Part shown: positions 6,774 to 62,693 of the stretch, one piece after another
Layout of the letters: the number at the start of each line of letters is the position of its first letter
Position numbering within the stretch: position 1 is the stretch's first letter
DNA from: Minisyncoccota bacterium
Lineage (GTDB): Bacteria; Patescibacteriota; Minisyncoccia; UBA6257; JAGOQP01
Direction: 5' to 3'
DNA length: 64,000 nucleotides
Assembly (NCBI GenBank): GCA_041661795.1
Contig: JBAZTS010000002.1
Coordinates: 36,263 to 100,262 of the forward strand
Made by a program: the position numbers and the translations under genes
Notes under the pieces: generated by a model
Told to the model about the DNA's origin: nothing
Database searches by the model: none
The model's input: only the letters and a program-made list of their open reading frames with translations

Positions 6774-7553
6774 ATGAACGAACAATCAAAAAATTCTCTT
6801 TTCGGAGCGCTAACTTTATTTGTCTTGGTTCTCACTGTTATTTTTGTTTATTCAATTTTTTGGGGACCTCTTCACAGATATTCTCAATCTTTAATCTCCC
6901 CAAGAACAATGGCGGTTTCGGCCTCGGATAAAGTAACCGTAAAACCGGATATAGCCAATTTATCTTTTTCGGTGATTACCGAGGGGATGGATACAGCCAA
7001 AGTTGTTGATGAAAACAATAAAAAAATAAATTTAGCCATAGATATTATTAAACAAGAAGGAGTAAGCGAGGAGGATATAAGAACATCAGAATACAATCTT
7101 TCTCCCGTTTATACCTATCCTACCAGGAGCTCTTCTGGCGAGTTTGTCCCAAAAATTGCCAAGTATACTCTGACCCAGTCGGTTTCTTTAAAAATCAGGG
7201 ATTTTACAAAAATCTCTGTTGTTTTACAAAAACTTCCGGCGCTTGGTATAAACAAGATTGAAAATATCTATTTTAGCATTGATGATCCAGATATATTTCT
7301 TTCCAGTGCTAGAGAAGGAGCTTTTAAAAAGGCCTTTGAGAAAGCGGATAAAATGGCCAGACAAAACGGAGTTAGCTTGGGAAGAGTCGTAAGCATTTCG
7401 GATTATTCCAATAACTATTATCCTACCTATGAAAAATATGGAATGGGAGGGGATATGATGTCGTCTTCTGCGTCACCCATCAGCGCTCCTGATATTCAGC
7501 CGGGAAGCAAGGAGTTGACTGTTAATGTTAGTGTCGTTTATGAAATCAAATAG
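6774..7553 (+). CDS. SIMPL/DUF541-like secreted protein
   Basis: N-terminal TM or signal; …VTVKPDIANLSFSVITEG…EEDIRTSEYNLSPVY… resembles the SIMPL (BP26-like) domain. Confidence 0.5.
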   Translation: MNEQSKNSLFGALTLFVLVLTVIFVYSIFWGPLHRYSQSLISPRTMAVSASDKVTVKPDIANLSFSVITEGMDTAKVVDENNKKINLAIDIIKQEGVSEEDIRTSEYNLSPVYTYPTRSSSGEFVPKIAKYTLTQSVSLKIRDFTKISVVLQKLPALGINKIENIYFSIDDPDIFLSSAREGAFKKAFEKADKMARQNGVSLGRVVSISDYSNNYYPTYEKYGMGGDMMSSSASPISAPDIQPGSKELTVNVSVVYEIK

Positions 7554-8328
7554 GAAAAAATTTGGAGCTTCTGTTGTTGTTATTTTGGTTGGGTTAATGA
7601 CTATAATCGGACTTTCTGATATCATTTTTATTATTCCCAATCAAAATAACCAAACAGATAATCAAGCCAAAACAATGGAAGAATCCGGTTTCTTAAACGC
7701 CAGCGATGGCAAAAAGATTTCCTATCAATACTTTAAATCTCCAGACCCAAAAGGATGGGTTGTTTATCTACATATGATGCCTTCTACTAAGGAGTCATTT
7801 TTTGATTTAGCCGTAAAACTACAAACTCTTGGATATGAAGGGATAAGTATAGATTTTAGGGGGCATGGGCAATCGGAAGGAGGGCCTGACGGTTATTTGA
7901 ATTTTTCTGATAGTGAGCATCAAAATTATTATAATGATGTTTTGGGAACCGTTGATTTTCTTGTAAGCCAAGGAGCCAAAAAAGAAAAGATATATTTTGT
8001 GGGCGCTTCTATTGGAGCTAATGTTGCTCTAAAATATTTATCTTTAAATAAAGAAACTACAAAAGCAGTCCTGCTTTCTCCTGGGTTTAATTATCGTGGA
8101 ATTACCACAAAAGATTTAGTTGTTAATCTTAGCGAAACAAAAGACATTCTTTTTGTATCCAGCCAAGACGACGAATCTAATTCTGGCGAGGTTGAAGAGT
8201 TATTTTCCTTGGTTCCGCAATCTGCAAAAAAAGATAAAGTTATTTTTGAAAAGGCCGGTCATGGGACTGATATGTTCGCCGTCCAGTCGGATTTATATGA
8301 AAAAATAATTAGTTTTATTACCAATTAA
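7525..8328 (+). CDS. alpha/beta-fold hydrolase (dienelactone-hydrolase-like)
   Basis: GASIGANVAL nucleophile elbow (G-x-S-x-G); IDFRGHGQSEG; C-terminal GHGTD histidine. The annotated start overlaps the upstream gene; an alternative ATG lies at about 7540. Confidence 0.6.
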   Translation: MLVSFMKSNRKKFGASVVVILVGLMTIIGLSDIIFIIPNQNNQTDNQAKTMEESGFLNASDGKKISYQYFKSPDPKGWVVYLHMMPSTKESFFDLAVKLQTLGYEGISIDFRGHGQSEGGPDGYLNFSDSEHQNYYNDVLGTVDFLVSQGAKKEKIYFVGASIGANVALKYLSLNKETTKAVLLSPGFNYRGITTKDLVVNLSETKDILFVSSQDDESNSGEVEELFSLVPQSAKKDKVIFEKAGHGTDMFAVQSDLYEKIISFITN

Positions 8329-23979: not shown

Positions 23980-25950
23980 ATGAGTATTTTAAAAAGAACA
24001 TTAATTTTTCTTTTTGGGGCGTTTATTCTTTTTTCTGTCGGAAATTTTGCCTATGCTCAAGGGGCTGATTCTTTAAAATATTACTATTACAAATTAATAG
24101 ACGTTTCTTTGTTTGTTAATTCCGACTCAAGCGTTAATGTAACGGAAAAACAAACGTTCAGTTATCAAGGGAATTTTCATAAAGGATGGAGAAGTATCAA
24201 CTTAGACGGGATTGGCGAAGTGAGTGACGTTTCTATTGTAGATGGAACTACTGGAAAGGCGCTAGAATATTCATATTCAAAACTCAGCCCCGAGGATTCA
24301 TCCAGCTGGGGGAAATTTACTCATTATAAATCTAGTGGAGACGAAGGAGTTTATCAAAATATTGAGTGGTACTATAATCTCTCCGATACTGACCACGATT
24401 GGATTATAAGATATAAAATTGCGGATTCAGTTTCTTTTTATGATAATTATGATCGTCTTTATTTGGATATTTTTTCTGACAGTGCTTATAACGTTCCGAT
24501 AGATCAGGTGGATGTCTCTGTTTATTTCCCCGGGCATACTTTGGACCAAAATTATCAGGCATTATATTACAGGTCTTTTGGCAAAAACGGAGATTTTACA
24601 CTAAATCAAAATAGTAATACTCTCGTGTCAAAGGCCTCCAATTTTTCTTCAAAGGAATTCTTAACTGTTGATGTTAAATTTCCAAAGGGGATTGTTGTTG
24701 AAATTTTTAGACCCAAGGCGTCTTTAGGAGATCTTTGGGGAATATTTGCGTCCATAGCTATCTCAATTATTTGTCTTATCATCGGATTTTTCTATTGGCT
24801 TTTTCAGGAGAAATTTAAAAAGGGCAAAGGAGTTATAATTCCGCAATATGAACCGCCAAAAGGCATTAAGCCGGCCATGGCCGAGTTTGTGATAAAAGAA
24901 TCGGTTGGACCCAAAGGAATATCTGCTACTATTGTGGATTTGATTGTCAGGAAATATATAGAGATTGAAGAAATGCCCGTAAAAAAATCAAAGATGCTTC
25001 TTCTCAAGATATTTGTGGGGATTATTCCTCTTGCTGTTTTAGCATCCTTTCTCGTATCTGTTTTGCTTTCTGACGCCGGAAGTGTTTTTTTTGGACTGTG
25101 GCCCTTCTTTGCCATTATAATTGTTATTTCTTTGGCTAAAATATTTTTCTCTTTTGGAAAGAATTTTTCTAAGACGCGTAAGTCATTTAAAATGATTTTA
25201 ATTAAGGACTATCAAAATGATCTACATTTAAACCATTATGAAAAGAAACTTCTTGATACGATTTTCTCTGAAAATAACAGTTTAATGTTTGGATGGGGTA
25301 TTCCTTTTTCAGAATCCGCAAAGTTTAGAAAAATGTATAGCGGAATTTTGGAATTTAAAAAAGAAGTTGGAGAAGAGTTGGAAAAAATAAGCGGAATATA
25401 CACGGCTTCTCCATCCAAGGAATACAGGTGGAAAGTCAGAGTTTTTCTTTCTTATATATTAGCTACCGGAATATTCATATTTGGTTCGTTCTTTTCTGTC
25501 TTTGTGGGCGGAGTGGAATATTCTCATCAGATGGTAATGTTTTGGGCTTATGGTTTTGCCGCCATTTATTCATTGCGTTCTTTTATAAAATACGAAACCC
25601 GGCTTTCTCACGAGGGGAATATTTTAAAAGAACATCTCTTGGGTTTTAAATATTTTTTGGAAACGGTTGAGGGAAGAAGAATACAGGATCTAACTCCGGA
25701 AATGTTCCAGACATTTTTTCCTTACGCGGTTGTTTTTGGAATAGAAAGCAAGTGGACTAATCATTTTTCATCTTTATTTATTCAAGACCAGCAACTTTCA
25801 GGCGGGTATATTAATCCGTCCATAGCGGTTGGACTTTCTTCGTCTTTGTCGTCTGCTTTTAATGTTGGCGCAACTGGAGGAGGAAGTGGTGGATTTGGAG
25901 GCGGAGGCGCAGGTGGTGGTGGAGGAGGCGGTGGCGGTGGAGCCAGTTAG
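23980..25950 (+). CDS. DUF2207-like large membrane protein with a C-terminal poly-Gly tail
   Basis: AAAGGAGG RBS 7 nt before the ATG at 23980; signal peptide, extracellular domain, a TM cluster, and the C-terminal …GATGGGSGGFGGGGAGGGGGGGGGGAS that is typical of DUF2207 proteins. Confidence 0.45.
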   Translation: MSILKRTLIFLFGAFILFSVGNFAYAQGADSLKYYYYKLIDVSLFVNSDSSVNVTEKQTFSYQGNFHKGWRSINLDGIGEVSDVSIVDGTTGKALEYSYSKLSPEDSSSWGKFTHYKSSGDEGVYQNIEWYYNLSDTDHDWIIRYKIADSVSFYDNYDRLYLDIFSDSAYNVPIDQVDVSVYFPGHTLDQNYQALYYRSFGKNGDFTLNQNSNTLVSKASNFSSKEFLTVDVKFPKGIVVEIFRPKASLGDLWGIFASIAISIICLIIGFFYWLFQEKFKKGKGVIIPQYEPPKGIKPAMAEFVIKESVGPKGISATIVDLIVRKYIEIEEMPVKKSKMLLLKIFVGIIPLAVLASFLVSVLLSDAGSVFFGLWPFFAIIIVISLAKIFFSFGKNFSKTRKSFKMILIKDYQNDLHLNHYEKKLLDTIFSENNSLMFGWGIPFSESAKFRKMYSGILEFKKEVGEELEKISGIYTASPSKEYRWKVRVFLSYILATGIFIFGSFFSVFVGGVEYSHQMVMFWAYGFAAIYSLRSFIKYETRLSHEGNILKEHLLGFKYFLETVEGRRIQDLTPEMFQTFFPYAVVFGIESKWTNHFSSLFIQDQQLSGGYINPSIAVGLSSSLSSAFNVGATGGGSGGFGGGGAGGGGGGGGGGAS

Positions 25951-39278: not shown

Positions 39279-39315
<37 letters not shown>

Positions 39316-39324
39316 GCTATGAAA

Positions 39325-39366
39325 TAAAAAAAGCCCGCCGGTGTCTTCCGAGGAAGTCCTGGCGGG
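39325..39366 (-). terminator. intrinsic terminator of the minus-strand GC-rich transcript
   Basis: Minus-strand RNA …CCCGCCAGGACUUCC-UCGG-GGAAGACACCGGCGGG followed by UUUUUUU. Confidence 0.65.
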
Positions 39367-39922
39367 GTGGAACAGGTGGTGCGACCTTAGCTCACTCGGT
39401 GCTGTCGAGTTCGCTCGCCCGATATACTCTCCGGGTGATACGAGAGCTCGAATCTGCCGAGACGTGACGCGTGGTCACTTTTTGCTAAGGTTTTTTGGGG
39501 TGCTGCTCCTCTTCCTGTTCGGTACTTTCTAAGAACGGTTCCCACACCGTTCTCGCCGGCGAGCTTAGCTCGCGCAGGGTAGAGGCGCCTCCTAAAGGAG
39601 GCAAAACATGAGTACAAATTCGGAATTGGATTTTTGTGAGTTTCCGGACTCACTATCTCGTTTGGTGCACCTCCCGAGAAGTCCTTTTCCTTCCACTTAT
39701 TATTGGGCCAGTTTGAGATCAGCGGTGGACACTCAAACTGTTTGCGTGCTTTCACCGAGCTTGCCGGATTTACTCGGATCTTTGGTGAGATGGCGCAACC
39801 CCACAGTTTTGACCTCCCTCAGCTGCGCGCGCAACTGAGTTGTCAGCTCACCTAGTGACAGAGGCCCCCTTTTTGACCGTTTTTTCTTCTTGGTCCGGAA
39901 GGGTTTCCGTGCTACATTTTTA
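39335..39922 (-). ncRNA. unclassified GC-rich structured transcript (~590 nt) upstream of and co-directional with dnaX; candidate SRP RNA, tmRNA or other ncRNA
   Basis: Consensus promoter (TTGACA-N16-TATAAT at 39930-39957, minus strand) and intrinsic terminator; 55-60% GC; many hairpins (CCUCCuuuaGGAGG, GCGAGCuaaGCUCGC, GAGAACGGUgugggaACCGUUCUU); no convincing long ORF. Confidence 0.4.
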
Positions 39923-39929
39923 TGCCTGT

Positions 39930-39957
39930 ATTATACTCCTTTTGTTTTATTTGTCAA
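39930..39957 (-). promoter_or_regulatory. consensus sigma70 promoter (TTGACA-N16-TATAAT) on the minus strand
   Basis: Reverse complement of 39930-39957 reads TTGACAaataaaacaaaaggagTATAAT. Confidence 0.6.
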
Positions 39958-49698: not shown

Positions 49699-49926
49699 AT
49701 GGCTAGAAGAAAACCGGCAAGATCGATAACCATAGATAGGATGACAAGGATGATTTGCGGAGTGCTGATTCCGTCAATTATCCTTCCTCGACTACAAGAG
49801 GCGGAAGACATCGCCCTTCGGACTCTGGGGGCTTTAGGAAAGTCCCAGAGTGAAGCTCGTCATCTTTTCTGGGTGGCTATTGAGACACTCGCCAAGAGTG
49901 AGCAGATTTCCAACGGCACGCAATAG
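49699..49926 (+). CDS. GC-rich small hypothetical protein (75 aa)
   Basis: AGGGGGA RBS about 5 nt upstream of the ATG; candidate promoter TTGACT-N17-TATTTT at 49649-49677; hairpin GGCGCGGAACttgtTCCGCGCC downstream; about 50% GC against a ~35% background. Confidence 0.35.
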   Translation: MARRKPARSITIDRMTRMICGVLIPSIILPRLQEAEDIALRTLGALGKSQSEARHLFWVAIETLAKSEQISNGTQ

Positions 49927-49975
49927 ACAGCTCTTTCCAACTATAGGCGCGGAACTTGTTCCGCGCCTTCTGCAT

Positions 49976-52668: not shown

Positions 52669-54618
52669 TTATGAAGATGCTTTTTTAATTGCCTCCATTT
52701 CTTTTTTTATTTGAGTAGCTTTTTCAAACTGTAAATTTCTCTGTGCCATTTCCAGTTTTTGCCTTAATTCTTTCAAATAATCCCTCTTAAATTCACTGCT
52801 GATATTTTTGAACTCTTCGCTTTTCTCTTCTTTATTATCTAATAATGTATTTTTTATTTCTTTTATTATGGCCTGTGGCTTTTTATTGTGTTTGCGATTA
52901 TATTCCTGCTGAATTTTTCTTCTTCTGTCCATTTCGGATATTGCTCCTTTCATTGATTTAGTAGTTTTGTCGGCATACATAATCACATGGCTGTTTAAGT
53001 TTCTGGCAGATCTTCCGGCAATTTGAATGAAAGAAGTTTTATCTCTTAAAAATCCTTCTTTGTCGGCGTCTAAAATAGCTATTAATGAAACTTCAGGTAA
53101 ATCCAATCCCTCTCTTAATAAGTTTATCCCAACCAGAACATCAAACTTTCCGGTTCTCAAATCAAAAAGAATTTTTGGTCTTTCCAATGTATCAATTTCG
53201 GAATGTAAAAACTCAGCTTTTATTTTTTTATCCTTAAAATGTTGAACTAGGGCTTCTGACAAGCGCTTGGTAAGAACAGTTACTAAAACTCTTTCTTTCC
53301 TTTTTATTCTTTCTTCTATTTCTTTTATTAAGTCAGGGATTTGATTTTCCGTGGGGCGAATCTCAGTTTCCGGGTCCAAAAGATAAGTTGGTCTGACAAT
53401 CTGTTGGGCAACCAAAGATGATTTTTCCAATTCATATTCAGCTGGGGTAGCCGAAGCAAACAAACATTTATTTATTTTTGAATGAAACTCGTTAAATTTA
53501 AGAGGTCGATTATCTAAGGCCGATGGTATGCGAAATCCGTGTTCTATAAGAGTTTCTTTTCTGGCTTTGTCGCCGTGATACATCCCTCTTACCTGAGGAA
53601 GAGTCATGTGGGACTCGTCTATAATCATCAAAAAATCTTTAGGAAAATAATCAATCAAAGTGAATGGGGGACTGTCTGGTTTTCTTCCCTCAAAATAACG
53701 GGAATAATTTTCAATTCCTTTACACCAGCCAACTTCAGATATCAAAGCCATATCATAATTAGTCCTTCTCTTGAGACGCTCGGCTTCTATCATTTTTCCT
53801 CTTTCCTGAAGTTTTTTAACTTGTTCTTCCAAATCCAAACGTATATTGGATATGGCTACTTGTCTTACACTCTCTTCCGATGACCAGAATTTTGCCGGAA
53901 ATAAATTAATTTCTTTTATATCTTTACTTTTTCCAAACGGCGCTTCCATTTCCACTATTTTCTCAATTGATTCGTGGTTTATCTTAAATCTGTATAAAAT
54001 ATCTCCTCCCGGGGGCCAAACATCTATAAACTCGGCCCTCTGTCTAAAATTTCCTCTCCAAAAACCAAATTCGTTTCTCTCAAACTGTAAAGTTAGTAAT
54101 TTTTTTAGAAGTTCTCTTTTAGTTGTTTTTTGACCCACTTTTATTTTTAAAGAAAGATTTTTGTATGCCTCTGGAGAACCCAAATTATAAATACAGGAAA
54201 CAGAAGCCACGATTATGGTGTTTGGATTTTTTAAAACTGATTGGACGGCCGCGTGTCTTAGTTTGTCTATCTCTTCATTAATTTGAACTTCCTTTTCTAT
54301 ATAAGTATCGGATGTGGGTAAGTAGGCCTCTGGTTGGTAGTAGTCGTAGTAGGAAACAAAATAATGGACATTGTCTTTAGGAAATATCATTTTAAATTCT
54401 TCATAAAGCTGGGCGGCTAAAGTTTTGTTATGGGAAATAACTAAGGTGGGCTTGTTAAGTGCCTGAATGGTGTGGGCCATAGTAAACGTTTTACCGCTTC
54501 CGGTAACTCCCAAAAGTGTCTGGAATTTATTGTTTTTACGGAACCCAGAAACTATCTGTTTTATAGCTTTGGGTTGATCGCCAGCTGGCTTTAGTTTTTT
54601 TGATATATTAAATGGCAT
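52669..54618 (-). CDS. uvrB: excinuclease ABC subunit B
   Basis: …LLGVTGSGKTFTMA…, DESH, helicase motifs, and a C-terminal UVR coiled-coil (…LQFEKATQIKKEMEAIK). Confidence 0.95.
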   Translation of the reverse strand: MPFNISKKLKPAGDQPKAIKQIVSGFRKNNKFQTLLGVTGSGKTFTMAHTIQALNKPTLVISHNKTLAAQLYEEFKMIFPKDNVHYFVSYYDYYQPEAYLPTSDTYIEKEVQINEEIDKLRHAAVQSVLKNPNTIIVASVSCIYNLGSPEAYKNLSLKIKVGQKTTKRELLKKLLTLQFERNEFGFWRGNFRQRAEFIDVWPPGGDILYRFKINHESIEKIVEMEAPFGKSKDIKEINLFPAKFWSSEESVRQVAISNIRLDLEEQVKKLQERGKMIEAERLKRRTNYDMALISEVGWCKGIENYSRYFEGRKPDSPPFTLIDYFPKDFLMIIDESHMTLPQVRGMYHGDKARKETLIEHGFRIPSALDNRPLKFNEFHSKINKCLFASATPAEYELEKSSLVAQQIVRPTYLLDPETEIRPTENQIPDLIKEIEERIKRKERVLVTVLTKRLSEALVQHFKDKKIKAEFLHSEIDTLERPKILFDLRTGKFDVLVGINLLREGLDLPEVSLIAILDADKEGFLRDKTSFIQIAGRSARNLNSHVIMYADKTTKSMKGAISEMDRRRKIQQEYNRKHNKKPQAIIKEIKNTLLDNKEEKSEEFKNISSEFKRDYLKELRQKLEMAQRNLQFEKATQIKKEMEAIKKASS

Positions 54619-54842
54619 AATTTTCTGCCACCTTTTTGGTCAGAAAAAGGTGGCGCCAAAACTGACAACCCTGTATATCCTCTCAAACAAATGAAACAAA
54701 TATCTCGCTTTGTCTTGAACTCGTATCTGCTATACTCACACACTCAAGACACTAAAAGCTCATATTTGCTTTATTTGTTAGTGTTCGGACATACGGGTTG
54801 ATATTTAGCTAATAATAGCCCTAAATCTAGTGTTTGTTAATA

Positions 54843-54871
54843 TTGACTTATTAGTAATAATATGATATACT
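54843..54871 (+). promoter_or_regulatory. consensus sigma70 promoter TTGACT-N17-TATACT preceding the GC-rich membrane-protein gene
   Basis: ttgact tattagtaataatatga tatact; a ~90-nt structured GC-rich leader follows. Confidence 0.55.
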
Positions 54872-54962
54872 CAAAACAAGTTTCGAAACCGCTTCACTGC
54901 CGTGAACAACACTACAGAAAGAGCGGTCGGAGCACTGCTCTTTCACAGAAAGGGGAACTTCG

Positions 54963-55361
54963 ATGAGTGGGATCGCTTGGTTTTTCGAGGTGTTCGCTCT
55001 GCTGTTTTTCGTGGGGACTCTGGGCGTTGCTTTCATCGGACGCCGCATCCTCAAGGCGGAGCAGGAGTCGTCGGTTCTGATGTCTTTCCTCCAGATCTGC
55101 AGTGGAGCGCTCTTCATCTTCTACGTTTTCGGACTGGGTCAACTCATGGCTCTGTCTGGACTGGAAGGTGCAAGGGCGCCCCGGTGGCTGATTCCGGGCA
55201 CCTACATCACTCTCACCATCTTCAGCGCGTTGACTCGGCTGGCTCTTCCAAGGTGGGGCAGTGACAACAAAGCGATGCAACTCTGGAGTGTCGTCAGCGT
55301 CCTGACGTTCCTACTCGGCACGTTCTGCCTCGGGGCGTACTCGTCCAACTACTTCGAGTAG
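54963..55361 (+). CDS. GC-rich (~58% GC) 4-TM membrane protein of unknown function
   Basis: AAAGGGGAAC RBS before the ATG at 54963; four hydrophobic helices; terminator hairpin at 55386-55420; overlapping alternative-frame ORFs were rejected. Confidence 0.4.
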   Translation: MSGIAWFFEVFALLFFVGTLGVAFIGRRILKAEQESSVLMSFLQICSGALFIFYVFGLGQLMALSGLEGARAPRWLIPGTYITLTIFSALTRLALPRWGSDNKAMQLWSVVSVLTFLLGTFCLGAYSSNYFE

Positions 55362-55385
55362 GTCTCCTTCTTCAGCTCTTCAACT

Positions 55386-55420
55386 GGCGGCGTCTCTCAC
55401 GAGGCGCCGCACTGCTTTTT
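55386..55420 (+). terminator. intrinsic terminator (GGCGGCGucucucacgagGCGCCGC followed by a T-run)
   Basis: GC stem followed by ACTGCTTTTT. Confidence 0.55.
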
Positions 55421-55467
55421 ATATGGTTATAAAATTTATATAAATTTCCCCGTCAATATAAATCCGC

Positions 55468-56607
55468 TTAATCGGTATATGTCCGTGACCGACGTAGTCG
55501 GTGGTATCGTATAGCAAATCTGTGGGCTTCGTTTCTTAACGAAAGTAATGTATTTTTAACATCTTCGGGGATTTGGCTCAAGCTGATAGGGGATTTTGAA
55601 TAGGGACTGTAAATCAATCCTTTTGTTTGTGATCTTTTATATTTCTTGCCAACATCGTTAATTAACTTACCATTACAATTAGAACGATCGTTGTAATTGT
55701 AATGGTGTGGATTATTACCCACAGATTGCAATTTGCCCACGTTTAGTTTTGCTAGAGCTATCATCGGAATCTTAATTGTTTTGAGTTGTGAGATTTGTGA
55801 TTTTCCTCCGTCAATGATAATTAAATCCGGATATTTCCATTCTTTGTGGTTAAGGCGTCTTTCTATAATTTCTTTTATTGAAGCCGGGTCATTGGCTCCT
55901 TTTATCGTTTTTATTTTAAATTTTCTGTAAAGATTTTTATTAGGTTTATTTCCGATAAACGTTACCATTGAGCCAACTGACAAACTACCTTGGGTATTGG
56001 AAATGTCGTAGCACTCAATATGTGTTTTTTCTCCATTATATAAACGAAGAAAAGTTTTTAATCCATTAACCACCTGGATGTATTTTTTTACTTCGATATT
56101 ATGAGCGGAACATAACCCTAAGTGATAATACAAGCACGGCTTTTCCGGTTTATTTTTACATGTGCGATAGGGGAATATTCTTCTGATTATCAATAAGAGA
56201 TGCTTAATCTCTTTTGCGTCTACAAACGGGCCAACAAAATCGGCTTTAAATTTTTTTGTTTGGTGTGTTAAAAGCACTCTGGGGTACTTTTCGTCGGTAA
56301 AAGCTATATACAAAAAATCCTTGTCATCTTTAAGTTCAATGTTATATTTTGGCTGATACTGTCTAACTAATTTTCTTTCTAAAATCAAGGCGTCTTTTTC
56401 AGATGGGGTTTCTATAAAATCTAAGTCAGCTACTTGTTTGTAAAAATTAATAGAAGCATTCTCTTGTCTAGAAAAATGCGATTCTATTCTCTTTTTTATA
56501 TTAATAGCTTTTCCGATATACAAAATCTTCTCATTCTTATCTTTGAAAATATATACTCCCGGTTTCTTAGGAAGTGCTTTTATCTTATTCTTCAGGATTG
56601 TTTTCAC
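55468..56607 (-). CDS. uvrC: minimal UvrC-like endonuclease (GIY-YIG, Cys motif and C-terminal endonuclease domain; no UvrB-binding or HhH domains), with a 36-bp palindrome in-frame
   Basis: GVYIFKDKNEKILYIGKAINIKKRIESHF (GIY-YIG); YRTCKNKPEKPCLYYHLGLC; IECYDISNTQG…DLIIIDGGKSQ…NEAHRFAIRYHR matches the UvrC catalytic D/D/H triad region; 379 aa. Confidence 0.7.
   Translation of the reverse strand: MKTILKNKIKALPKKPGVYIFKDKNEKILYIGKAINIKKRIESHFSRQENASINFYKQVADLDFIETPSEKDALILERKLVRQYQPKYNIELKDDKDFLYIAFTDEKYPRVLLTHQTKKFKADFVGPFVDAKEIKHLLLIIRRIFPYRTCKNKPEKPCLYYHLGLCSAHNIEVKKYIQVVNGLKTFLRLYNGEKTHIECYDISNTQGSLSVGSMVTFIGNKPNKNLYRKFKIKTIKGANDPASIKEIIERRLNHKEWKYPDLIIIDGGKSQISQLKTIKIPMIALAKLNVGKLQSVGNNPHHYNYNDRSNCNGKLINDVGKKYKRSQTKGLIYSPYSKSPISLSQIPEDVKNTLLSLRNEAHRFAIRYHRLRRSRTYTD
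55670..55705. repeat. 36-bp palindrome CCATTACAATTAGAACGATCGTTgTAATTGTAATGG (copy 1, in-frame inside the uvrC-like CDS)
   Basis: Near-perfect palindrome; translated as …HHYNYNDRSNCN… within the 379-aa ORF. Confidence 0.85.
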
Positions 56608-56645
56608 TGTTTTTTTATTTTTATCCTTATCTTAATCTTAATCTA

Positions 56646-56681
56646 CCATTACATTTAGAACGATCGTTCTAAATGTAATGG
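56646..56681. repeat. 36-bp perfect palindrome CCATTACATTTAGAACGATCGTTCTAAATGTAATGG (copy 2, intergenic)
   Basis: Between the uvrC-like start and the PaaX-like stop. Confidence 0.85.
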
Positions 56682-56684
56682 TGG

Positions 56685-57245
56685 CTAGATTTTCTTTATA
56701 GTCCCCATTTTTCCTATTTCCAATATCTCCACGTATTCGTTTATTCTCATTTTTTCTAAATCTTCCACAAACTTTTTAGGAATTTTTATTTTTCCTATCC
56801 AGACACTTTTTTGCAACATTTCAAATCCAATATTCTTTACAGCTGATCTTAACCAAGCCCTCTTCCTTTTAAATTTTTCCGGAACATCAAAAGCTATCAA
56901 AATAACATTGTTTCCGGCTTCTTTCTTATAATCTAAAGCTGGAGATTGATTATTGGATACCCGGTTAATAAGTTTTTTGGCTTTTTTAGTAATCTTGATA
57001 ATCAACCCCTCTTTTTGTTCTATGAGTCCGTCTTTCTTAAGACGATAAATCATTACCCTATATCTGTTTCTTATTTTTTCTTTCTCTGTTTTGATAGTCT
57101 CATTTTTAGTGCCGATTCTATTTAAATTGTCTCTTAATATAGACGTTGAGCCCCAAGAGAATAAAAACGCTTCAAAAGCATTAGAGTATGTTTGTCTATC
57201 TACATTATTTAGAAAACTTATTGTTTCTCTATTTCTTGCCCTCAT
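56685..57245 (-). CDS. PaaX-like regulator: N-terminal winged helix plus a C-terminal Cas2/VapD-like domain
   Basis: …RNRYRVMIYRLKKDGLIEQKEGLIIKITKKAKKLI (wHTH) followed by VILIAFDVPEKFKRKRAWLRSAVKNIGFEMLQKSVWIG (PaaX C-terminal-type fold). Confidence 0.45.
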   Translation of the reverse strand: MRARNRETISFLNNVDRQTYSNAFEAFLFSWGSTSILRDNLNRIGTKNETIKTEKEKIRNRYRVMIYRLKKDGLIEQKEGLIIKITKKAKKLINRVSNNQSPALDYKKEAGNNVILIAFDVPEKFKRKRAWLRSAVKNIGFEMLQKSVWIGKIKIPKKFVEDLEKMRINEYVEILEIGKMGTIKKI

Positions 57246-57270
57246 AACAATATTATATCATCATTTATTA

Positions 57271-57306
57271 CCATTACAATTAGAACGATCGTTCTAATTG
57301 TAATGG
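57271..57306. repeat. 36-bp perfect palindrome CCATTACAATTAGAACGATCGTTCTAATTGTAATGG (copy 3, upstream of the PaaX-like gene)
   Basis: Lies 26 nt upstream of the PaaX-like start codon. Confidence 0.85.
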
Positions 57307-57417
57307 AGGGAGTATATATGATTAAGAATATTAAATAATTATCATAGAGTTATTATGATTATAGATTGATTTTATCGTTTTAATTAAAGAGTGCCTTATA
57401 AATTAGCACGGACCGCT

Positions 57418-57570
57418 TTATGGGCGGTCCGGGATGGGTGGAGCGGGTGCGGGCTTGACCACTTTGGCCACGAGGCCGATTAATATGGTCAGCATTGAAA
57501 CGGGTACTACGGTGGCGATGATGACGGACGATTCCACCACCACCAGAGACCACTTGACTAGGTAGTGCAT
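57418..57570 (-). CDS. GC-rich 50-aa hydrophobic peptide (MHYLVKWSLVVVESSVIIATVVPVSMLTILIGLVAKVVKPAPAPPIPDRP)
   Basis: AGGAGG 4 nt upstream of the ATG; single TM; terminator hairpin GGACCGC/GCGGUCC overlaps the stop codon. Confidence 0.3.
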   Translation of the reverse strand: MHYLVKWSLVVVESSVIIATVVPVSMLTILIGLVAKVVKPAPAPPIPDRP

Positions 57571-57689
57571 TCAACCTCCTTTCTTCTGAGAATCTTGGTG
57601 ATCCACAGATAGAGGTTGTATCCTGTTTGAATAACGTGGGCCATCTTTTGGCCCAGTATTGTCGTCCGATGAAACGTTGTTGTAGACAT
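57558..57689 (-). CDS. GC-rich 43-aa peptide (MSTTTFHRTTILGQKMAHVIQTGYNLYLWITKILRRKEVECTT)
   Basis: AAAGGAGAC RBS 5 nt before the ATG; the downstream part of the listed 57558..57860 ORF, whose upstream part is the wrong frame of the neighbouring gene. Confidence 0.25.
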   Translation of the reverse strand: MSTTTFHRTTILGQKMAHVIQTGYNLYLWITKILRRKEVECTT

Positions 57690-57703
57690 CACGTCTCCTT
57701 TGG

Positions 57704-57949
57704 TTAGGCGATGGCGCCGGGGTATTCTTCGGAGATCTTCTCGATCTCTTTTTCCTCTTTCTTCACTTGGTCTGTGAGCACAAGGAAGAAAAAGATGATG
57801 GCCATGATTCCCACAAGAGTGGCAAAGGCCCATGAAAAGCTCTTGGGGAGTTGGAACCATCGTGATAAGTGATATCCTCCAAAAGTGAGAATTACCACGG
57901 CCACGGTCGCTCCAACTTTACGGAGCAAGTTGAGTAGTCCCGGGAACAT
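57704..57949 (-). CDS. GC-rich 81-aa 2-TM protein
   Basis: AAGGAGG RBS 6 nt before the ATG; two hydrophobic helices. Confidence 0.3.
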   Translation of the reverse strand: MFPGLLNLLRKVGATVAVVILTFGGYHLSRWFQLPKSFSWAFATLVGIMAIIFFFLVLTDQVKKEEKEIEKISEEYPGAIA

Positions 57950-58193
57950 TACTCTCCTCCTTTTTGGTGTACATCTTTCGAAGTTTCTCCTGTAGAGCGT
58001 TGAGCCCCGTGAAGACCAGGGCTCCGGTCAGAAACCCGATACAAGCCAACGATCCTCGGATCTCCAATCCTGGAGGCAGTGGAACTCGGTCTGCCCATAG
58101 GACCGTGAAGAAACAGGAAGCAGCAGTTGAAAGGCCAACGAAAGTGAACCAAACCACTCTTGCGATCAACTCCAGAACTTTTCCGATTTTCAT
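57918..58193 (-). CDS. GC-rich 91-aa 2-TM protein
   Basis: GAGGAGG RBS 7 nt before the ATG; first gene of a 4-ORF GC-rich micro-operon. Confidence 0.3.
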   Translation of the reverse strand: MKIGKVLELIARVVWFTFVGLSTAASCFFTVLWADRVPLPPGLEIRGSLACIGFLTGALVFTGLNALQEKLRKMYTKKEESNVPGTTQLAP

Positions 58194-58280
58194 GCTCTGA
58201 TCCTCCTCTGTTTTTCACATTATAATAATCATTGAATTTTGTCCATGTTTGATTTAGAATAACCCTTTGGTTGGCATTTT

Positions 58281-61193
58281 ATGAAAAAAGAGAATCAATC
58301 AATAGAAATAATCGGGGCGCGTGTCCACAACTTAAAAAATGTGGATGTTTCTATACCTAAAAATAAATTGGTAGTTGTTTGCGGAGTTTCTGGTTCCGGA
58401 AAATCATCTTTAGCTTTTGATACTTTATACGAAGAGGGACAGAGAAGATATTTAGAAAGTTTGTCCTCTTATGTCAGACAGTTTTTAGGAGGATTTAAAA
58501 AACCAGATGTTGAAAAAATAATCGGCTTGTCTCCGACTATCGCCATCAACCAAAAAAGCGTTTCTTCCAATCCGCGTTCAACTGTGGGCACAATAACTGA
58601 AATTTACGATCATCTCCGTCTTCTCTTTGCTCGAGTTGGAATTCCTCATTGTCCAAATGACAACATTGTCATAACCGCTCAGACACCACAAGAAATCGCC
58701 AATAGAATTATTGACTTGGCTCATAACAACGAAATTGTTTTGCTGGCTCCAATAATCTCGGGGAAAAAGGGTCAGCACCAGGCGATTTTTGACGAGATTG
58801 AGAGGGGCGGATATTCACAGGTCAGGGTTGATGGGTATTTTTATCCCATTGCCGAAGCCAAAAATATTTCTCTGGATAAAAATAAAAAACACGATATCGA
58901 AGTTACCGTAGGTAAGTTTTTTACTGGAGTAAAAATAGATATCCAAAGAAATATATCCAAAATGGAAAGAGAGGCATTGAAAAACAAAAATAAAAAGATA
59001 GATAAGTTGATAAAAGAAGAAAAGTTAGAACTTTTAGAAAACATCAGAAAAGGACTGGCCATGGGGCAGGGAAATATTGTTGCTCATACCAAGGGGAAGG
59101 ATTTTTCCTTTTCCGAGAATTATTCCTGTTCTAAATGCGGATTTTCTTTACCCAAAATTGAACCCAGAACTTTTTCATTCAACAGTCCTTTTGGAGCTTG
59201 TAAAAATTGTCAGGGATTGGGAACTAAACTTGAAATAGATTTGGATTTGATAATCAACCCGGAAATCTCTTTGGAAGCGGGAGCTATAAAGCCCTGGTTT
59301 TCTTTAAGCCGTATGGGAAGAAGAGCTCTTGGCGCCAATTGGCAGAGATTTGTTACTGAGACCATTATTAGGGATTCTGGGCTGTCCCCAAGAACTCCTT
59401 TTGGAAAACTTCCCAAAGAAGTCCAGGATAAAATTTTATATGGTGATAAAGAAAATTATACTCATCTTAAAGACGGCGATTGGGAAGGAAAAACTTTATT
59501 TGAGGGAATTATTCCTCGCTTGGAGCGACTTTATTACGAAACTGAATCTGATTTTATCAGACAGGAACTTTCTAAATACATGCTTGAAAAAACCTGTCCC
59601 GTTTGTAATGGGTCGCGTTTAAGAGAAGAAGCATTGGCGGTAAGAGTGGGAGGAAAGAACATTTCTGAATTGACTTCAATGGCGGTTTTGGATTTTGTTA
59701 GTTTTTGCCAAAAACATATTTATGAAAAAATGTCGGAAAATCAAAAAACGGTTGCTGTTTCAATAATCAAAGAAATTTCCACTAAATCAAATTTTTTAAT
59801 TAACGTTGGTTTGGAATATATGAACTTGGGAAGGTCAGCGACTACTTTGTCAGTAGGAGAAAATCAAAGAATCCGCCTGGCTACCCAGTTGGGTTCTGGA
59901 TTGTCTGGAGTGATTTATGTTTTAGACGAACCGACTATTGGGCTTCATCCTCGCGACACTGACCGTCTCATAAAAACATTAAAAGAACTTAGAGATTTAA
60001 ATAATACCGTGATTGTGGTGGAACATGATGAGAGGGTTATAGAAAGCGCCGATTGGGTTATTGAAATTGGACCATTAGCCGGAGAAGAAGGTGGCAAGGT
60101 TGTTTTTGAAGGAACGCCATCAGATTTGAAAAAATCAAAAACGTTAACTGGATTATATTTTGCCGGCAAGAAAAAAGCGCAATCGGGACTTTCTAAAAAT
60201 AATTCTGAAAATAAAGAATTTATAAAACTGTATGGCGCTTCACAGTTTAATTTAAAAAACATAAATCTTTCCATTCCTTTAAAAAAATTTGTCTGTGTGG
60301 CAGGAGTTTCGGGCTCGGGTAAAAGCACGTTAATGTTAGATGTTTTTGCCAAGGCCCTTCAGAAAGAAGTTCTTAGGATGAGCGTGGCTGTAGGTGAATA
60401 TAAAAAACTTGAGGGGGAAAGAAATATAGACAAAGTGGTTATTATTGACCAAAGTCCTATCGGCAGAACCCCTCGTTCCAATCCGGCTACTTATACGGGA
60501 ATTTTTACTCCCATTAGACAATTTTTCACTCGCTTGGAAGAGTCGCAGATAAGGGGATATGGGCCATCATATTTTAGTTTCAACGTTAAGCCGGGAAGAT
60601 GTGAGGCCTGCAGAGGGGAAGGATTTAAAAAGGTGGAGATGTATTTTTTGCCGGATATGTACGTAGAGTGTGAAGTTTGTAAAGGCACCAGATTTTCTCC
60701 CGAGGTTTTGGATGTTAAATATAAAAACAAAAACATTGCTGATGTTCTTTCTATGAGCGTTAAGGAAGCGCTGGCGTTTTTTCACCAGTTTCCTTTTATT
60801 GGCGATAAGTTAAAAATTCTTGATGAAATCGGTCTTGGATATATGAAACTGGGACAGCCGGCGACAACTTTGTCGGGAGGAGAAGCTCAAAGGATAAAAC
60901 TTTCCGATGAACTTGCCAAAAGAGCTACAGGAAGGACTATTTATATTTTAGACGAACCGACTGTGGGACTTCACTTTGAAGACACAAAAAAACTTTTATA
61001 TATTTTGCGCTCGTTGGTTCTAAAAGGTAATACGGTTTTAGTTATAGAACACAATCCTGATGTTTTAAAAGAATCGGACTGGATTATTGAACTTGGTCCC
61101 GAAGGTGGAGACAAGGGAGGAAAAATAATTTTTGAGGGAACACTGGAAGAGATAAAAAAGAAAAAAACAATGACGGGGAAGTATTTAATATGA
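58281..61193 (+). CDS. uvrA: excinuclease ABC subunit A
   Basis: 970 aa; two ABC modules ([12 protein letters not shown]…, LSGGE), zinc-finger Cys pairs, C-terminal …[16 protein letters not shown]. Confidence 0.95.
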
Positions 61194-61411
61194 AGATAAT
61201 AATCATCGTAAAACCAAATAAAAAAGAAAATAAGGTTGTGAAAATAGGAGAGAACATTTTTGAAATTTATACGAATCAACCGGCTAAAGAAAATAAAGCC
61301 AATTTGGATATTATTCAACAAATGTCCAAGTATTTTAAAGTATCAAAATCAAAGGTTTCTATATCTTCCGGATTAAAGTCAAAGAAGAAAATTTTGGAAA
61401 TAAATATATAA
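61190..61411 (+). CDS. DUF167 (YggU-like) family protein
   Basis: 73 aa; …KANLDIIQQMSKYFKVSKSKVSISSGLKSKKKILEI matches the DUF167 C-terminal consensus (AN…L…VxKsxVxIxxGxxSRxK). Confidence 0.65.
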   Translation: MKIIIIVKPNKKENKVVKIGENIFEIYTNQPAKENKANLDIIQQMSKYFKVSKSKVSISSGLKSKKKILEINI

Positions 61412-61443
61412 AAAAAGGGGGCTCCCGGTGTTGCTGGGAGCCC
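61410..61443 (-). terminator. intrinsic terminator of the minus-strand GC-rich transcript (GGGCUCCCagcaacaccGGGAGCCC followed by UUUUUUU)
   Basis: Seen on the reverse complement; it also caps the convergent DUF167 gene. Confidence 0.6.
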
Positions 61444-61940
61444 AAAGTGCGGTAAGGAGGTCAATGTACGATGCGGTGCCTGCCGTGCGTCGCTTCGCTC
61501 GTTCGGGTCTTGGTGGTTCAGATCAGGGCCAGTCGTGCCCGAAAACTTAACTTTCTGGCCCATTGCTTCTCGGCACGCATGGTTTCTCCTTGCATGGATT
61601 TTTGGTCCACGCAGCTCTGCCCTCAGCGCTTGACGGTGGCCTCGTCGTTGGTGCGGTGGTTGTTCTGACGCTGTTGCATGGGATTTCTCCTCGCGTGAAC
61701 GTCGTCGGTTGTTGGTGCTAGCTATGGCTCAAGTCAAGCTTTCTTTTCGGTGAGCTTGACGAGCAGTGCTAGCGCCTGTTCTGGGTTTCGTTTTTTATCG
61801 GTATAACCTTCACAAGGTTATACCAGGGTTTCCTTCCTGATTGGCGGTCAAGAAGGTTGTTTAATCATCCAGCATTGTCCTAACTAACGGAACGGCGGTT
61901 CGACGTCCACGTGCATCGCTTTCCTCCTTATGTAGTTTAC
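61443..61940 (-). ncRNA. GC-rich (~57% GC) transcript with only mini-ORFs (10, 18 and 20 codons, each with a strong SD); function unknown
   Basis: Promoter TTGACT-N17-TATCCT (minus strand, 61948-61976); first mini-ORF UAAGGAGGAAAGCG-AUG (MHVDVEPPFR); ends at the terminator at 61410-61443. Confidence 0.35.
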
Positions 61941-61947
61941 TTATTTC

Positions 61948-61976
61948 AGGATAAAACAAAAACGGCTATTAGTCAA
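61948..61976 (-). promoter_or_regulatory. sigma70-like promoter (TTGACT-N17-TATCCT) on the minus strand
   Basis: Reverse complement reads TTGACTaatagccgtttttgtttTATCCT. Confidence 0.5.
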
Positions 61977-61991
61977 ATATTTTTGTGAAAC

Positions 61992-62693
61992 TTACTTTTG
62001 ATGCTGAAACACATCTATTATCAAATTTTGGTCGGGGATAATTTCTTTTTTTAATGCTTTGACAATGACCTGAGCAACTTGATTTGGAGTATGTTTTGGT
62101 TCATGGTCGGGAAAACATGTTTTAAACATTCCAGTATCGGTTGAGCCGGGAGTAATTGTAAAAACGTCTATATTGTATTTGGAAAGTTCGTCTTTTAACG
62201 ACTGAGAAAGATTTATAATCGCCGCTTTAGTTAGAGAATAAATAGAGAGTCCTTCAATCCCGTAAAATCCGGCTCCAGAAGAAATATTGACGATTAATCC
62301 GGATTTCTTTTCTTTCATAATTTCAAGAACCCTTTTTATAACATTTAAAGTTCCTTTGATGTTAACGTCTATAATAAAATTCCAGTCAGGATAATCGGTT
62401 TCTTCAAAATTTTTATTCTGGGCAACAGCCGCATTGTTTACTAAAATATCTATACTTCCGAATTTATCAATCGTTTCTTCAATAACTTTTTCAACATCTT
62501 CTTTTGTTCTTATATCGCCTTGAGTAACTAAAAAATTGGGATTTTTTAAAATCACTTCCGTATCCAAATTATCGGGGATATTAATGGAAACCGTAGAAAC
62601 TTTACATCCTTGGTCAAGCAAGAGTTTGGCTGTTTCAAGACCTATTCCCGACGTTGCTCCAGTTATAAATACAACTTTATTTTTTATGTCCAT
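61992..62693 (-). CDS. short-chain dehydrogenase/reductase (SDR)
   Basis: VVFITGATSGIGLETAK (TGxxxGxG), NNAA, and a S…YxxxK catalytic tetrad arrangement. Confidence 0.8.
   Translation of the reverse strand: MDIKNKVVFITGATSGIGLETAKLLLDQGCKVSTVSINIPDNLDTEVILKNPNFLVTQGDIRTKEDVEKVIEETIDKFGSIDILVNNAAVAQNKNFEETDYPDWNFIIDVNIKGTLNVIKRVLEIMKEKKSGLIVNISSGAGFYGIEGLSIYSLTKAAIINLSQSLKDELSKYNIDVFTITPGSTDTGMFKTCFPDHEPKHTPNQVAQVIVKALKKEIIPDQNLIIDVFQHQK

Follow-up and report, generated by a model that had tools for sequence, protein, structure and literature searches.

How did a compact, GC-rich group of four very small genes, each led by a strong Shine-Dalgarno (SD) sequence, come to lie beside the DNA-repair gene uvrA in an AT-rich genome, and what could such genes be for? 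This question is raised by positions 57395-58215 of a 64-kb stretch of DNA (hereafter the window, meaning the stretch at its full length), which comes from a metagenome-assembled genome (MAG) of an uncultured Candidatus Paceibacterota bacterium. An exact protein look-up located it on contig JBAYLG010000001.1 of the MAG GCA_041664185.1. An earlier note on this DNA had described the island as a recently acquired cassette encoding tiny, mostly membrane, proteins. We consider it, with moderate confidence, to be a self-contained accessory envelope operon from the flexible gene pool of one Paceibacterota clade, placed in a hotspot between uvrC and uvrA and likely encoding a membrane complex. The accessory, foreign-looking character of the cassette was borne out, as it is absent from the closest relatives and the content of the slot varies, while its recent acquisition was not supported.

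Structure and composition of the island

The island consists of four consecutive open reading frames (ORFs) on the minus strand, for proteins of 91, 81, 43 and 50 amino acids (aa), and the strong SD sites claimed for them could be placed exactly. These are: ORF1 (57918..58208 including its SD; SD GAGGAGGA at 58208..58201, ATG at 58193, stop at 57918), ORF2 (57704..57960; SD GGAGGAG at 57960..57954, ATG at 57949, stop at 57704), ORF3 (57558..57700; SD AAGGAGA at 57700..57694, ATG at 57689, stop at 57558) and ORF4 (57418..57581; SD AAGGAGG at 57581..57575, ATG at 57570, stop at 57418). The distance from SD to ATG is 4–8 nt in all four. ORF1 and ORF2 overlap by 32 nt, with the SD of ORF2 sitting within the 3′ end of ORF1, and ORF3 and ORF4 overlap by 13 nt. 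When an SD-led ORF was defined as GGAGG, AGGAG or GAGGA followed after 3–10 nt by an ATG and an ORF of at least 40 aa, the island contained four on one strand, while 5000 dinucleotide-preserving shuffles gave a maximum of two (11 times) and never three or more.

Kyte-Doolittle analysis agreed with the claim that three of the proteins are dominated by transmembrane (TM) helices. ORF1 has TM helices at residues 13–32 and 48–67 followed by a basic C-terminal tail, ORF2 combines two TM segments with an acidic/charged tail (its AlphaFold2 (AF2) model is a two-helix hairpin with a pLDDT of 74), and ORF4 has a single long hydrophobic stretch (residues 3–40) followed by a Pro-rich tail (KPAPAPPIPDRP). 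ORF3 has zero TM segments; it is basic (6 K/R versus 2 D/E) and contains an amphipathic helix at residues 19–36 (hydrophobic moment, muH, 0.58). This ORF was not called by the gene finders of NCBI, the Joint Genome Institute (JGI) and Logan, and it is the least certain gene among the four.

A putative sigma-70-type promoter precedes the operon (58219..58245, minus strand; −35 TGGACA at 58245..58240, a 15-nt spacer and −10 TATAAT at 58224..58219) and is arranged back-to-back with a promoter-like site of uvrA (58232-58260, plus strand). The other end is formed by a GC hairpin with a second small stem (57391..57430, minus strand), in which GGACCGC and GCGGTCC enclose the loop CCATAAA with the ORF4 stop (57430..57410). 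This 7-bp hairpin overlaps the stop codon of ORF4 (−18.8 kcal/mol including the second stem, z-score −3.54) and is probably the end of both the transcript and the GC-rich stretch. Of the GC hairpin terminator proposed previously, the hairpin is present; its identity as a terminator is plausible and not canonical, as there is no U-tract and it was not called by a terminator scan.

The GC content of 57395-58215 is 0.50 (0.46–0.54 in 200-nt windows) versus 0.359 for the entire window; the island is GC-rich, as had been stated, at a measured 50% and not the ~55% given for it. This composition is limited to the segment from the first SD to the hairpin, and the promoter region is AT-rich. The GC content at third codon positions (GC3) is 0.52, 0.60, 0.55 and 0.71 in ORF1 to ORF4, respectively, versus 0.22–0.38 in 60 of the 61 long ORFs of the window, the exception (54963..55361, GC3 0.74) being itself a GC island. 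In ORF2 and ORF4, GC3 and the GC content at first positions clearly exceed that at second positions, a pattern that is weaker in ORF1 and absent in ORF3. An SD-like tetramer at −20 to −4 was found for 4 of 61 ORFs of at least 120 aa (6.6%), compared with 13.7% upstream of all ATGs of the window. The island is thus unlike the core genes in both composition and translation signals, as the earlier note had observed, and the lack of SD sites in the core, lying below background, is even stronger than was claimed. A TATAAT-like box is located a few bases 5′ of many core-gene starts, which suggests that many core mRNAs may be leaderless. The scarcity of SD sites is consistent with the finding of the anti-SD motif in just 48% of Parcubacteria 16S rRNAs (PMC9297842). 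The strongest SD-led genes of core composition, 7525..8328 and 23980..25950, encode membrane or secreted proteins.

Authenticity of the locus

The GC step is abrupt at both island borders, which could be the signature of an assembly chimera, i.e. a GC-rich fragment from another organism fused into an AT-rich contig. This explanation is effectively refuted. Logan assemblies of two separate runs, SRR18595301 (5.8 kb) and SRR6484324 (1.15 kb), are 100% identical to the window over the uvrA start, the entire island and 141 nt of AT-rich sequence past ORF4. Identical ORF1 and ORF2 proteins, together with two neighbouring products (the 132-aa and PaaX-like proteins described below), are present in two NCBI MAGs with different locus-tag prefixes, and the adjacency of uvrA and ORF2 recurs in a second lineage. 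The opinion that chimerism is the less likely explanation therefore holds. Both Logan contigs end within a perfect 36-nt palindrome located downstream of ORF4, which is likely a break point for a de Bruijn assembler.

A homologue of ORF2 at a second uvrA locus

An exhaustive HMMER search with ORF2 in 1.84 billion cluster representatives revealed one true homologue, P0003, and one spurious repeat protein. P0003 is equal in length to ORF2 and shares 42% identity with it over all 81 aa (E 5e-15), including an MFPGL N-terminus, an RWFxLP loop and an E[ED]YPGAIA C-terminus. In total, 35 positions (34 residues plus the stop) are identical; because the codons differ at 17 of them, the conservation is at the protein level. 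Judging from this alignment, ORF2 is a real gene with a fixed start, stop and length, and consequently the four ORFs should not be fragments of a decayed larger gene.

P0003 is encoded on L084, the 1181-nt JGI contig Ga0619418_07156652 of sample 3300069122, which belongs to a second Paceibacterota lineage. There, it is preceded by AAAGGAGGAG and diverges from uvrA across a 126-nt AT-rich spacer (GC 0.29), and the N-terminus of the encoded UvrA is 75% identical to that of the window. Both loci carry a homologous promoter, composed of ATGGACAAA, 15–17 nt, [T/C]ATAATG, GAAAAA and AGGAGGA. In L084 it directly precedes the ORF2 homologue, which stands alone behind its own SD, and a counterpart of ORF1 is absent; a possible conservation trace of ORF3 (FHRT..LG) follows the homologue just before the contig end.

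The P0003 gene has a GC content of 0.52 and a GC3 of 0.66, compared with 0.42 and 0.40 in the adjoining uvrA. Third-position identity between the two loci is 0.44 for the ORF2 genes and 0.47 for uvrA, i.e. both are equally saturated. The presence of the ORF2 family at the same site and behind the same promoter in two saturated lineages points either to long residence or to exchange as a promoter-plus-gene unit. It is on these grounds (the shared site, the homologous promoter, the saturated synonymous sites and a GC3 of 0.60–0.66 in both copies) that recent acquisition is not supported. The high GC3 argues for little amelioration, whereas the saturated, GC-rich L084 copy argues for long residence or repeated exchange; a recent import without amelioration does not fit the ORF2 family in any simple way. 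The UvrA of L084 is 86–88% identical to those of L087, L088 and L089, three further relatives, versus 74.5% to that of the window, and the ORF2 family is therefore patchily distributed.

The uvrC-uvrA gap in related genomes

In the window, the gap between uvrC (55468..56607, minus strand) and uvrA (58281..61193, plus strand, divergent from the four-ORF operon) contains the island and a 186-aa PaaX/Cas2-like gene (56685..57245, minus strand), the latter lying between uvrC and the island. The uvr cluster continues with uvrB (52669..54618, minus strand), which is separated from uvrC by a GC-rich ORF for a 132-aa membrane protein (54963..55361, plus strand). A DUF167 gene, a further GC-rich stretch and an SDR gene are located 3′ of uvrA.

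Comparison of the uvr regions of eleven relatives (UvrA 72–78% identical) revealed that the slot is empty in three of them (L004, L094 and L085, the relative closest to the window), where uvrC and uvrA are 38–160 nt apart. In four others it holds a gene on the minus strand for a 122–149-aa protein in which two TM helices are combined with a conserved, beta-rich C-terminal domain containing PPxxFKVVGE (L086 5441-5890, L087 3539-3934, L088 2-367 and L090 2818-3231, recognized by alignment). This family has zero Pfam annotation on record and is the commonest gene divergent from uvrA in the relatives; the 131-aa slot gene of L093 (4454-4849, minus strand) probably belongs to it, by size and position. 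Other occupants are PT-rich secreted proteins of 524–595 aa (L087 and L091) and a 245-aa protein with an N-terminal signal-peptide-like segment, as seen by eye, together with a 69-aa ORF (L089). By local tblastn and hhalign, none of these occupants is related to ORF1–4. A derivation of ORF1 or ORF2 from the two-TM family was considered and rejected (hhalign probability 2–3%).

ORF1–4 are absent from L004, L085-L091, L093 and L094, and the ORF2 family has been found in the window and L084 alone, neither of which is the other's closest relative. Deviating composition is also seen in other slot genes: GC3 is 0.54 in the 245-aa ORF of L089 (o245) versus 0.26–0.32 in its uvr genes, and 0.82 in o154 of L091 versus 0.43–0.45. 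SD sites precede the slot genes of L084, L087, L088 and L090 (those before the two-TM genes of L088 and L090 are strong), while the adjoining uvrC and uvrA start without SD. In the same genomes, other genes for membrane proteins are AT-rich, as is normal there. The gap between uvrB and uvrC and the surroundings of the DUF167 and SDR genes vary likewise among the relatives. The uvrC-uvrA gap is a variable hotspot with mostly membrane or secreted occupants, several of which are GC-richer than the genome.

Database searches with the four proteins

None of the four proteins gave a match above noise in Pfam, NCBIfam, PHROGs or PADLOC; there were just sub-threshold hydrophobic matches. The best Pfam match, obtained for ORF2 only, was DUF3021 (E 0.004, 17.8 bits versus a gathering threshold of 24.7), a family of small multi-TM proteins of Firmicutes. 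ORF2 residues 16–74 align to profile positions 75–128 of 130, so that just two hydrophobic helices are covered at a score below threshold, and the match is most likely compositional. PDB sequence searches with ORF1, ORF2 (as a profile) and ORF4 gave nothing below E 1, and a Foldseek search of the PDB with the ORF2 model retrieved generic helical hairpins (best E 1.1, not significant).

A word-index search of 5.8 billion protein clusters with ORF1 found only ORF1 itself, a word-index protein search with the ORF2 and P0003 profile found only these two, and a metagenome contig scan with the ORF2 profile yielded no confirmed match. ORF1, ORF2 and ORF4 were without match in viral contigs, and there were zero matches to the cassette in phage and plasmid collections, at the DNA level and by tblastn. 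For ORF3 and ORF4, exact look-up and local tblastn on the fetched loci (for ORF4 also viral contigs) revealed no homologue, the large protein databases not having been searched sensitively with these two; the 90%-identity cluster of ORF4 has one member. In Rfam 15, the window was without match at the gathering threshold, and 54500-62200 was without match up to E 1. That ORF1 is a duplicate of ORF2 was rejected (E 0.66).

With two 50%-identity clusters among the 1.84 billion representatives, the ORF2 family is new and extremely rare. The earlier note had allowed for the island genes turning out to be conserved core genes of the Candidate Phyla Radiation (CPR) with normal composition; the sole homologue found is neither core nor of normal composition.

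A proposed accessory envelope operon and its alternatives

The reading that we favour, an accessory envelope operon in the uvrC-uvrA hotspot, can be set out as follows. Transcription would start from the TGGACA-15-TATAAT promoter, back-to-back with that of uvrA. Translation would be SD-dependent and coupled from ORF1 to ORF2 and from ORF3 to ORF4, among core genes that start without SD. ORF1 and ORF2 would be inserted into the membrane as two-helix hairpins with charged tails, ORF4 would be a single membrane anchor with a Pro-rich tail and ORF3 a peripheral basic amphipathic peptide, and together these small proteins would most likely form a complex of the cytoplasmic membrane. The complex may serve an envelope or cell-surface accessory function, as may be supposed for the other slot occupants. 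The operon could owe its arrival in a lineage, or its transfer between lineages, to recombination in the flanking uvr genes, which are conserved, and not to a mobile element of its own.

Several observations weigh against this interpretation. No tRNA and no integrase was found near the island, its flanks contain no direct repeats beyond chance, and the search of phage, plasmid, viral, genome and metagenome collections revealed no donor. Both ORF2 copies are GC-rich (GC3 0.60–0.66) and SD-led despite saturated synonymous divergence, and the island RNA folds better than shuffles (z-score −2.84, from only 20 shuffles). The evidence for coding by ORF1, ORF3 and ORF4 is indirect (SD plus ATG, frame composition and hydrophobicity), and complex formation and the envelope role are suggested by context. 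Flanking target-site duplications, sought separately, were not found either. Measured against horizontally acquired islets in general, the island has the deviating composition and the patchy absence from relatives, and it shows neither a mobility signature nor a donor.

A native origin is one alternative. The island might be a long-resident member of a special expression class, made up of small, GC-rich, SD-led units that are bounded by a terminator and are not foreign. Their GC content would be kept high either by GC-biased gene conversion, as part of a hotspot of recombination, or by selection, acting on mRNA stability or structure or on translation that depends on SD where most genes do without it. 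The ORF2 orthologues, saturated and still with a GC3 of 0.60–0.66, a strong SD and a homologous promoter, speak for this, as do the presence in 64 kb of at least five GC-rich self-contained units whose GC-rich part coincides with the inferred transcribed part, and the moderately over-structured island RNA. The extreme rarity of the ORF2 family (two 50%-identity clusters among 1.84 billion representatives), its absence from lineages branching nearer (L085 to the window; L087, L088 and L089 to L084) and the normal, AT-rich composition of other membrane-protein genes in these genomes speak against it, and we regard such an origin as unlikely. Quite unlikely, and of greater consequence, is the broader proposal that a Parcubacteria lineage whose core genes have given up the SD mechanism maintains a whole class of small GC-rich, SD-led units bounded by promoter and terminator, encoding tiny membrane proteins or structured RNAs, with ORF2 as a uvrA-linked module. 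If it were true, the GC-richness and SD of such units would be actively maintained and not relics of transfer, and the ORF2 family would constitute a conserved membrane module under the same control region as uvrA. The structure of the RNA (z-score −2.84), the resemblance of the neighbouring GC islands I39 and I61 (39327-39957 and 61408-61960) to non-coding RNAs and the missing homologues of three of the four ORFs could also mean that the region is wholly non-coding, either a structured RNA or a decayed larger membrane-protein gene, in which the ORFs are incidental. We hold this to be very improbable: the conservation of ORF2 is that of a protein, with synonymous changes and with start, stop and length unchanged, and its homologue stands alone behind an SD in L084, all four ORFs have a strong SD and an ATG, and there is no Rfam match even up to E 1.

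Other alternatives concern what the proteins do. A membrane-permeabilising module, i.e. a prophage holin/antiholin-like remnant or a set of small membrane toxins, in which ORF1 and ORF2 form holes or depolarise the membrane and ORF3 and ORF4 modulate them, is an unlikely reading in our estimation; the control region that it has in common with uvrA might make its expression responsive to DNA damage. The idea draws on a resemblance of ORF1 and ORF2 to class II holins, which extends only to their size, two TM helices and charged C-terminal tails; in addition, the operon diverges from uvrA with adjacent promoters in two lineages. Against it, ORF1–4 are without match in PHROGs, Pfam and PADLOC, the neighbourhood contains neither an endolysin nor any other phage gene, and no relatives were found in viral contigs or phage records. 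The ORF1-uvrA spacer (58194-58280) contains no LexA-type GAAC-N4-GTTC box; in the window such boxes occur only at 56658, 57283 and 61890, the first two being palindromes around the PaaX-like gene. The strong, exposed SD of the four ORFs is unlike type I toxin loci, and there is no convincing antisense promoter: the sole plus-strand promoter-like site in the island is weak (TTGAAA-16-GATGAT, 9/12), and site counts equal those of shuffles. The small, basic ORF3 might point to yet another function, that of a leaderless-bacteriocin-like locus in which ORF3 is the antimicrobial peptide and ORF1, ORF2 and ORF4 are immunity or export helpers, resembling the lacticin Q and aureocin clusters with their leaderless peptide and small membrane helpers. 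ORF3 has the appropriate features (43 aa, net charge +4, amphipathic helix with muH 0.58) and shares its operon with genes for small membrane proteins on either side. There is, however, no Pfam or NCBIfam bacteriocin match up to E 1 and no ABC transporter nearby, and ORF3, the weakest gene call, is Lys- and Trp-poor relative to leaderless bacteriocins, which leaves this function hardly credible.

The cassette enlarges the accessory pool of the Patescibacteria by four orphan small proteins and is ordinary in kind. The presence of strongly SD-led genes amid core genes without SD enrichment is relevant to the question of whether the anti-SD interaction is still in use in such Parcubacteria, which was raised by a report that found the anti-SD motif in just 48% of Parcubacteria (PMC9297842). 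Moreover, the L084 orthologue has kept its GC excess despite saturation, and the reasoning that such DNA is foreign and not yet ameliorated is insufficient. Three features stand out as odd: GC3 has stayed high in both orthologues of ORF2; strong SD sites are confined to accessory genes for membrane or secreted proteins, the core genes showing none; and the window contains at least five of the GC-rich units, two of which look non-coding and strongly structured. All three speak for the maintained class of small, SD-dependent units considered above, quite unlikely though it is.

Neighbouring gene, palindromes and other GC-rich units

The PaaX/Cas2-like gene (56685-57245, minus strand) was named Cas2 by NCBI and PaaX by JGI. 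In its 186-aa product, a Cas2-like PaaX_M domain (E 1e-11) was recognized along with an N-terminus resembling a winged helix. Neither a CRISPR array nor another cas gene is located nearby, and distant relatives of the gene are also found near uvrA in two other CPR MAGs (L005 and L008).

The perfect 36-nt palindrome CCATTACAATTAGAACGATCGTTCTAATTGTAATGG (57271..57306) lies 112 nt downstream of ORF4, where it overlaps a promoter-like site of the PaaX/Cas2-like gene and marks the far border of the spacer. It is one of three copies of a palindrome of about 40 nt, TACCATTACA[A/T]TTAGAACGATCGTTCTAA[T/A]TGTAATGGTG (57271-57306, 56643-56684 and 55670-55707, the last with its core at 55679-55696 in uvrC), of which 0.03 would be expected by chance. 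Two copies bracket the PaaX/Cas2-like gene, and that at 56643-56684 is located 36 nt upstream of the uvrC start. The remaining copy is in frame within uvrC, inside a 29-aa insertion absent from seven related UvrC proteins, and could be likened to an insert of the Rickettsia palindromic element type. The palindrome core GAAC-GATC-GTTC fits the Gram-positive LexA-box pattern, and no exact copy of the palindrome was found in metagenome contigs. Alignment revealed lineage-specific in-frame insertions of 10–28 aa at two further sites in UvrC of L087, L091, L090 and L086, and it may be that uvrC often receives such small insertions in this clade.

In the window, the self-contained transcription units of high GC content number at least five, of which two look non-coding and strongly structured. 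That these islands are copies of one element was rejected, as they show no mutual similarity. The unit in the uvrB-uvrC gap (54843-55422, plus strand) has a promoter (TTGACT-17-TATACT) and a 90-nt GC-rich leader; its 132-aa orphan membrane protein (54963..55361) is followed by a strong terminator hairpin (55387-55410, z-score −4.8) and is absent from the relatives examined. Directly upstream of dnaX lies a candidate non-coding RNA of about 590 nt (I39; 39327-39957, minus strand, GC ~0.50) with a consensus promoter TTGACA-16-TATAAT (39957..39930), a canonical intrinsic terminator (39366..39327), no convincing ORF, a fold z-score of −3.65 and no Rfam match up to E 1. Four tandem AGTATAA 7-mers (TTATACT on the dnaX strand) are present at 39280-39307, 8–35 nt upstream of the dnaX start, and form a row of −10-like boxes.

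Another unit, I61 (61408-61960, minus strand, GC 0.51–0.56), is located downstream of the SDR gene. It has a canonical terminator (61443..61408), a fold z-score of −5.96 and three tiny SD-led ORFs of 10, 18 and 20 aa (starts at 61916, 61679 and 61580, respectively); its anti-SD-like 3′ ACCUCCUUA is predicted to pair with the 5′ AAGGAGG, and Rfam gave no match. A similar unit in L094 was rejected as an I61 homologue, as no similarity could be aligned. Finally, an orphan ORF of 75 aa (49699-49967, plus strand, GC 0.50) with the SD-like site AAGGGGGA lies between the rsmI-like and tgt genes and ends in a GC hairpin (49946-49967) with a T-run; its coding status is uncertain, since the codon-position GC profile is flat.

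Comparison with known systems

Class II holins are small proteins with two TM helices and a charged C-terminal tail. ORF1 and ORF2 resemble them and the pinholins (such as S21 of phage 21) in size (81–91 aa), in topology, in the charged tail and in the overlapping arrangement of the operon genes. They differ in having no sequence or profile similarity, no dual-start motif, and no endolysin or phage genes as the context of a lysis cassette, and in that the operon adjoins a DNA-repair gene in two lineages. TisB and DinQ of Escherichia coli are SOS-induced peptides, and the TisB/IstR and DinQ/AgrB systems share with the operon the small hydrophobic membrane peptides and a genetic tie to the DNA-damage response. 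Here, in contrast, there are four co-oriented ORFs of 43–91 aa with strong, accessible SD sites and no homology to these peptides, and neither an overlapping antisense RNA gene nor, in the operon control region, a LexA-type box was seen.

The cassette also resembles accessory hotspots, in which genomic islets between core genes are gained or replaced by recombination in the flanks. The cassette departs from them in being tiny (~0.85 kb), without integrase, tRNA or repeats, in being GC-richer and not AT-richer than its host, and in that ORF2 recurs, still GC-rich, at the same site in a distant lineage. Genomic islands have been reported in Patescibacteria (PMC12455944). The four-ORF operon shares with accessory hotspots the odd composition, the patchy distribution with absence from the closest relatives, a slot whose cargo differs from genome to genome, and a cargo rich in orphan membrane or secreted proteins.

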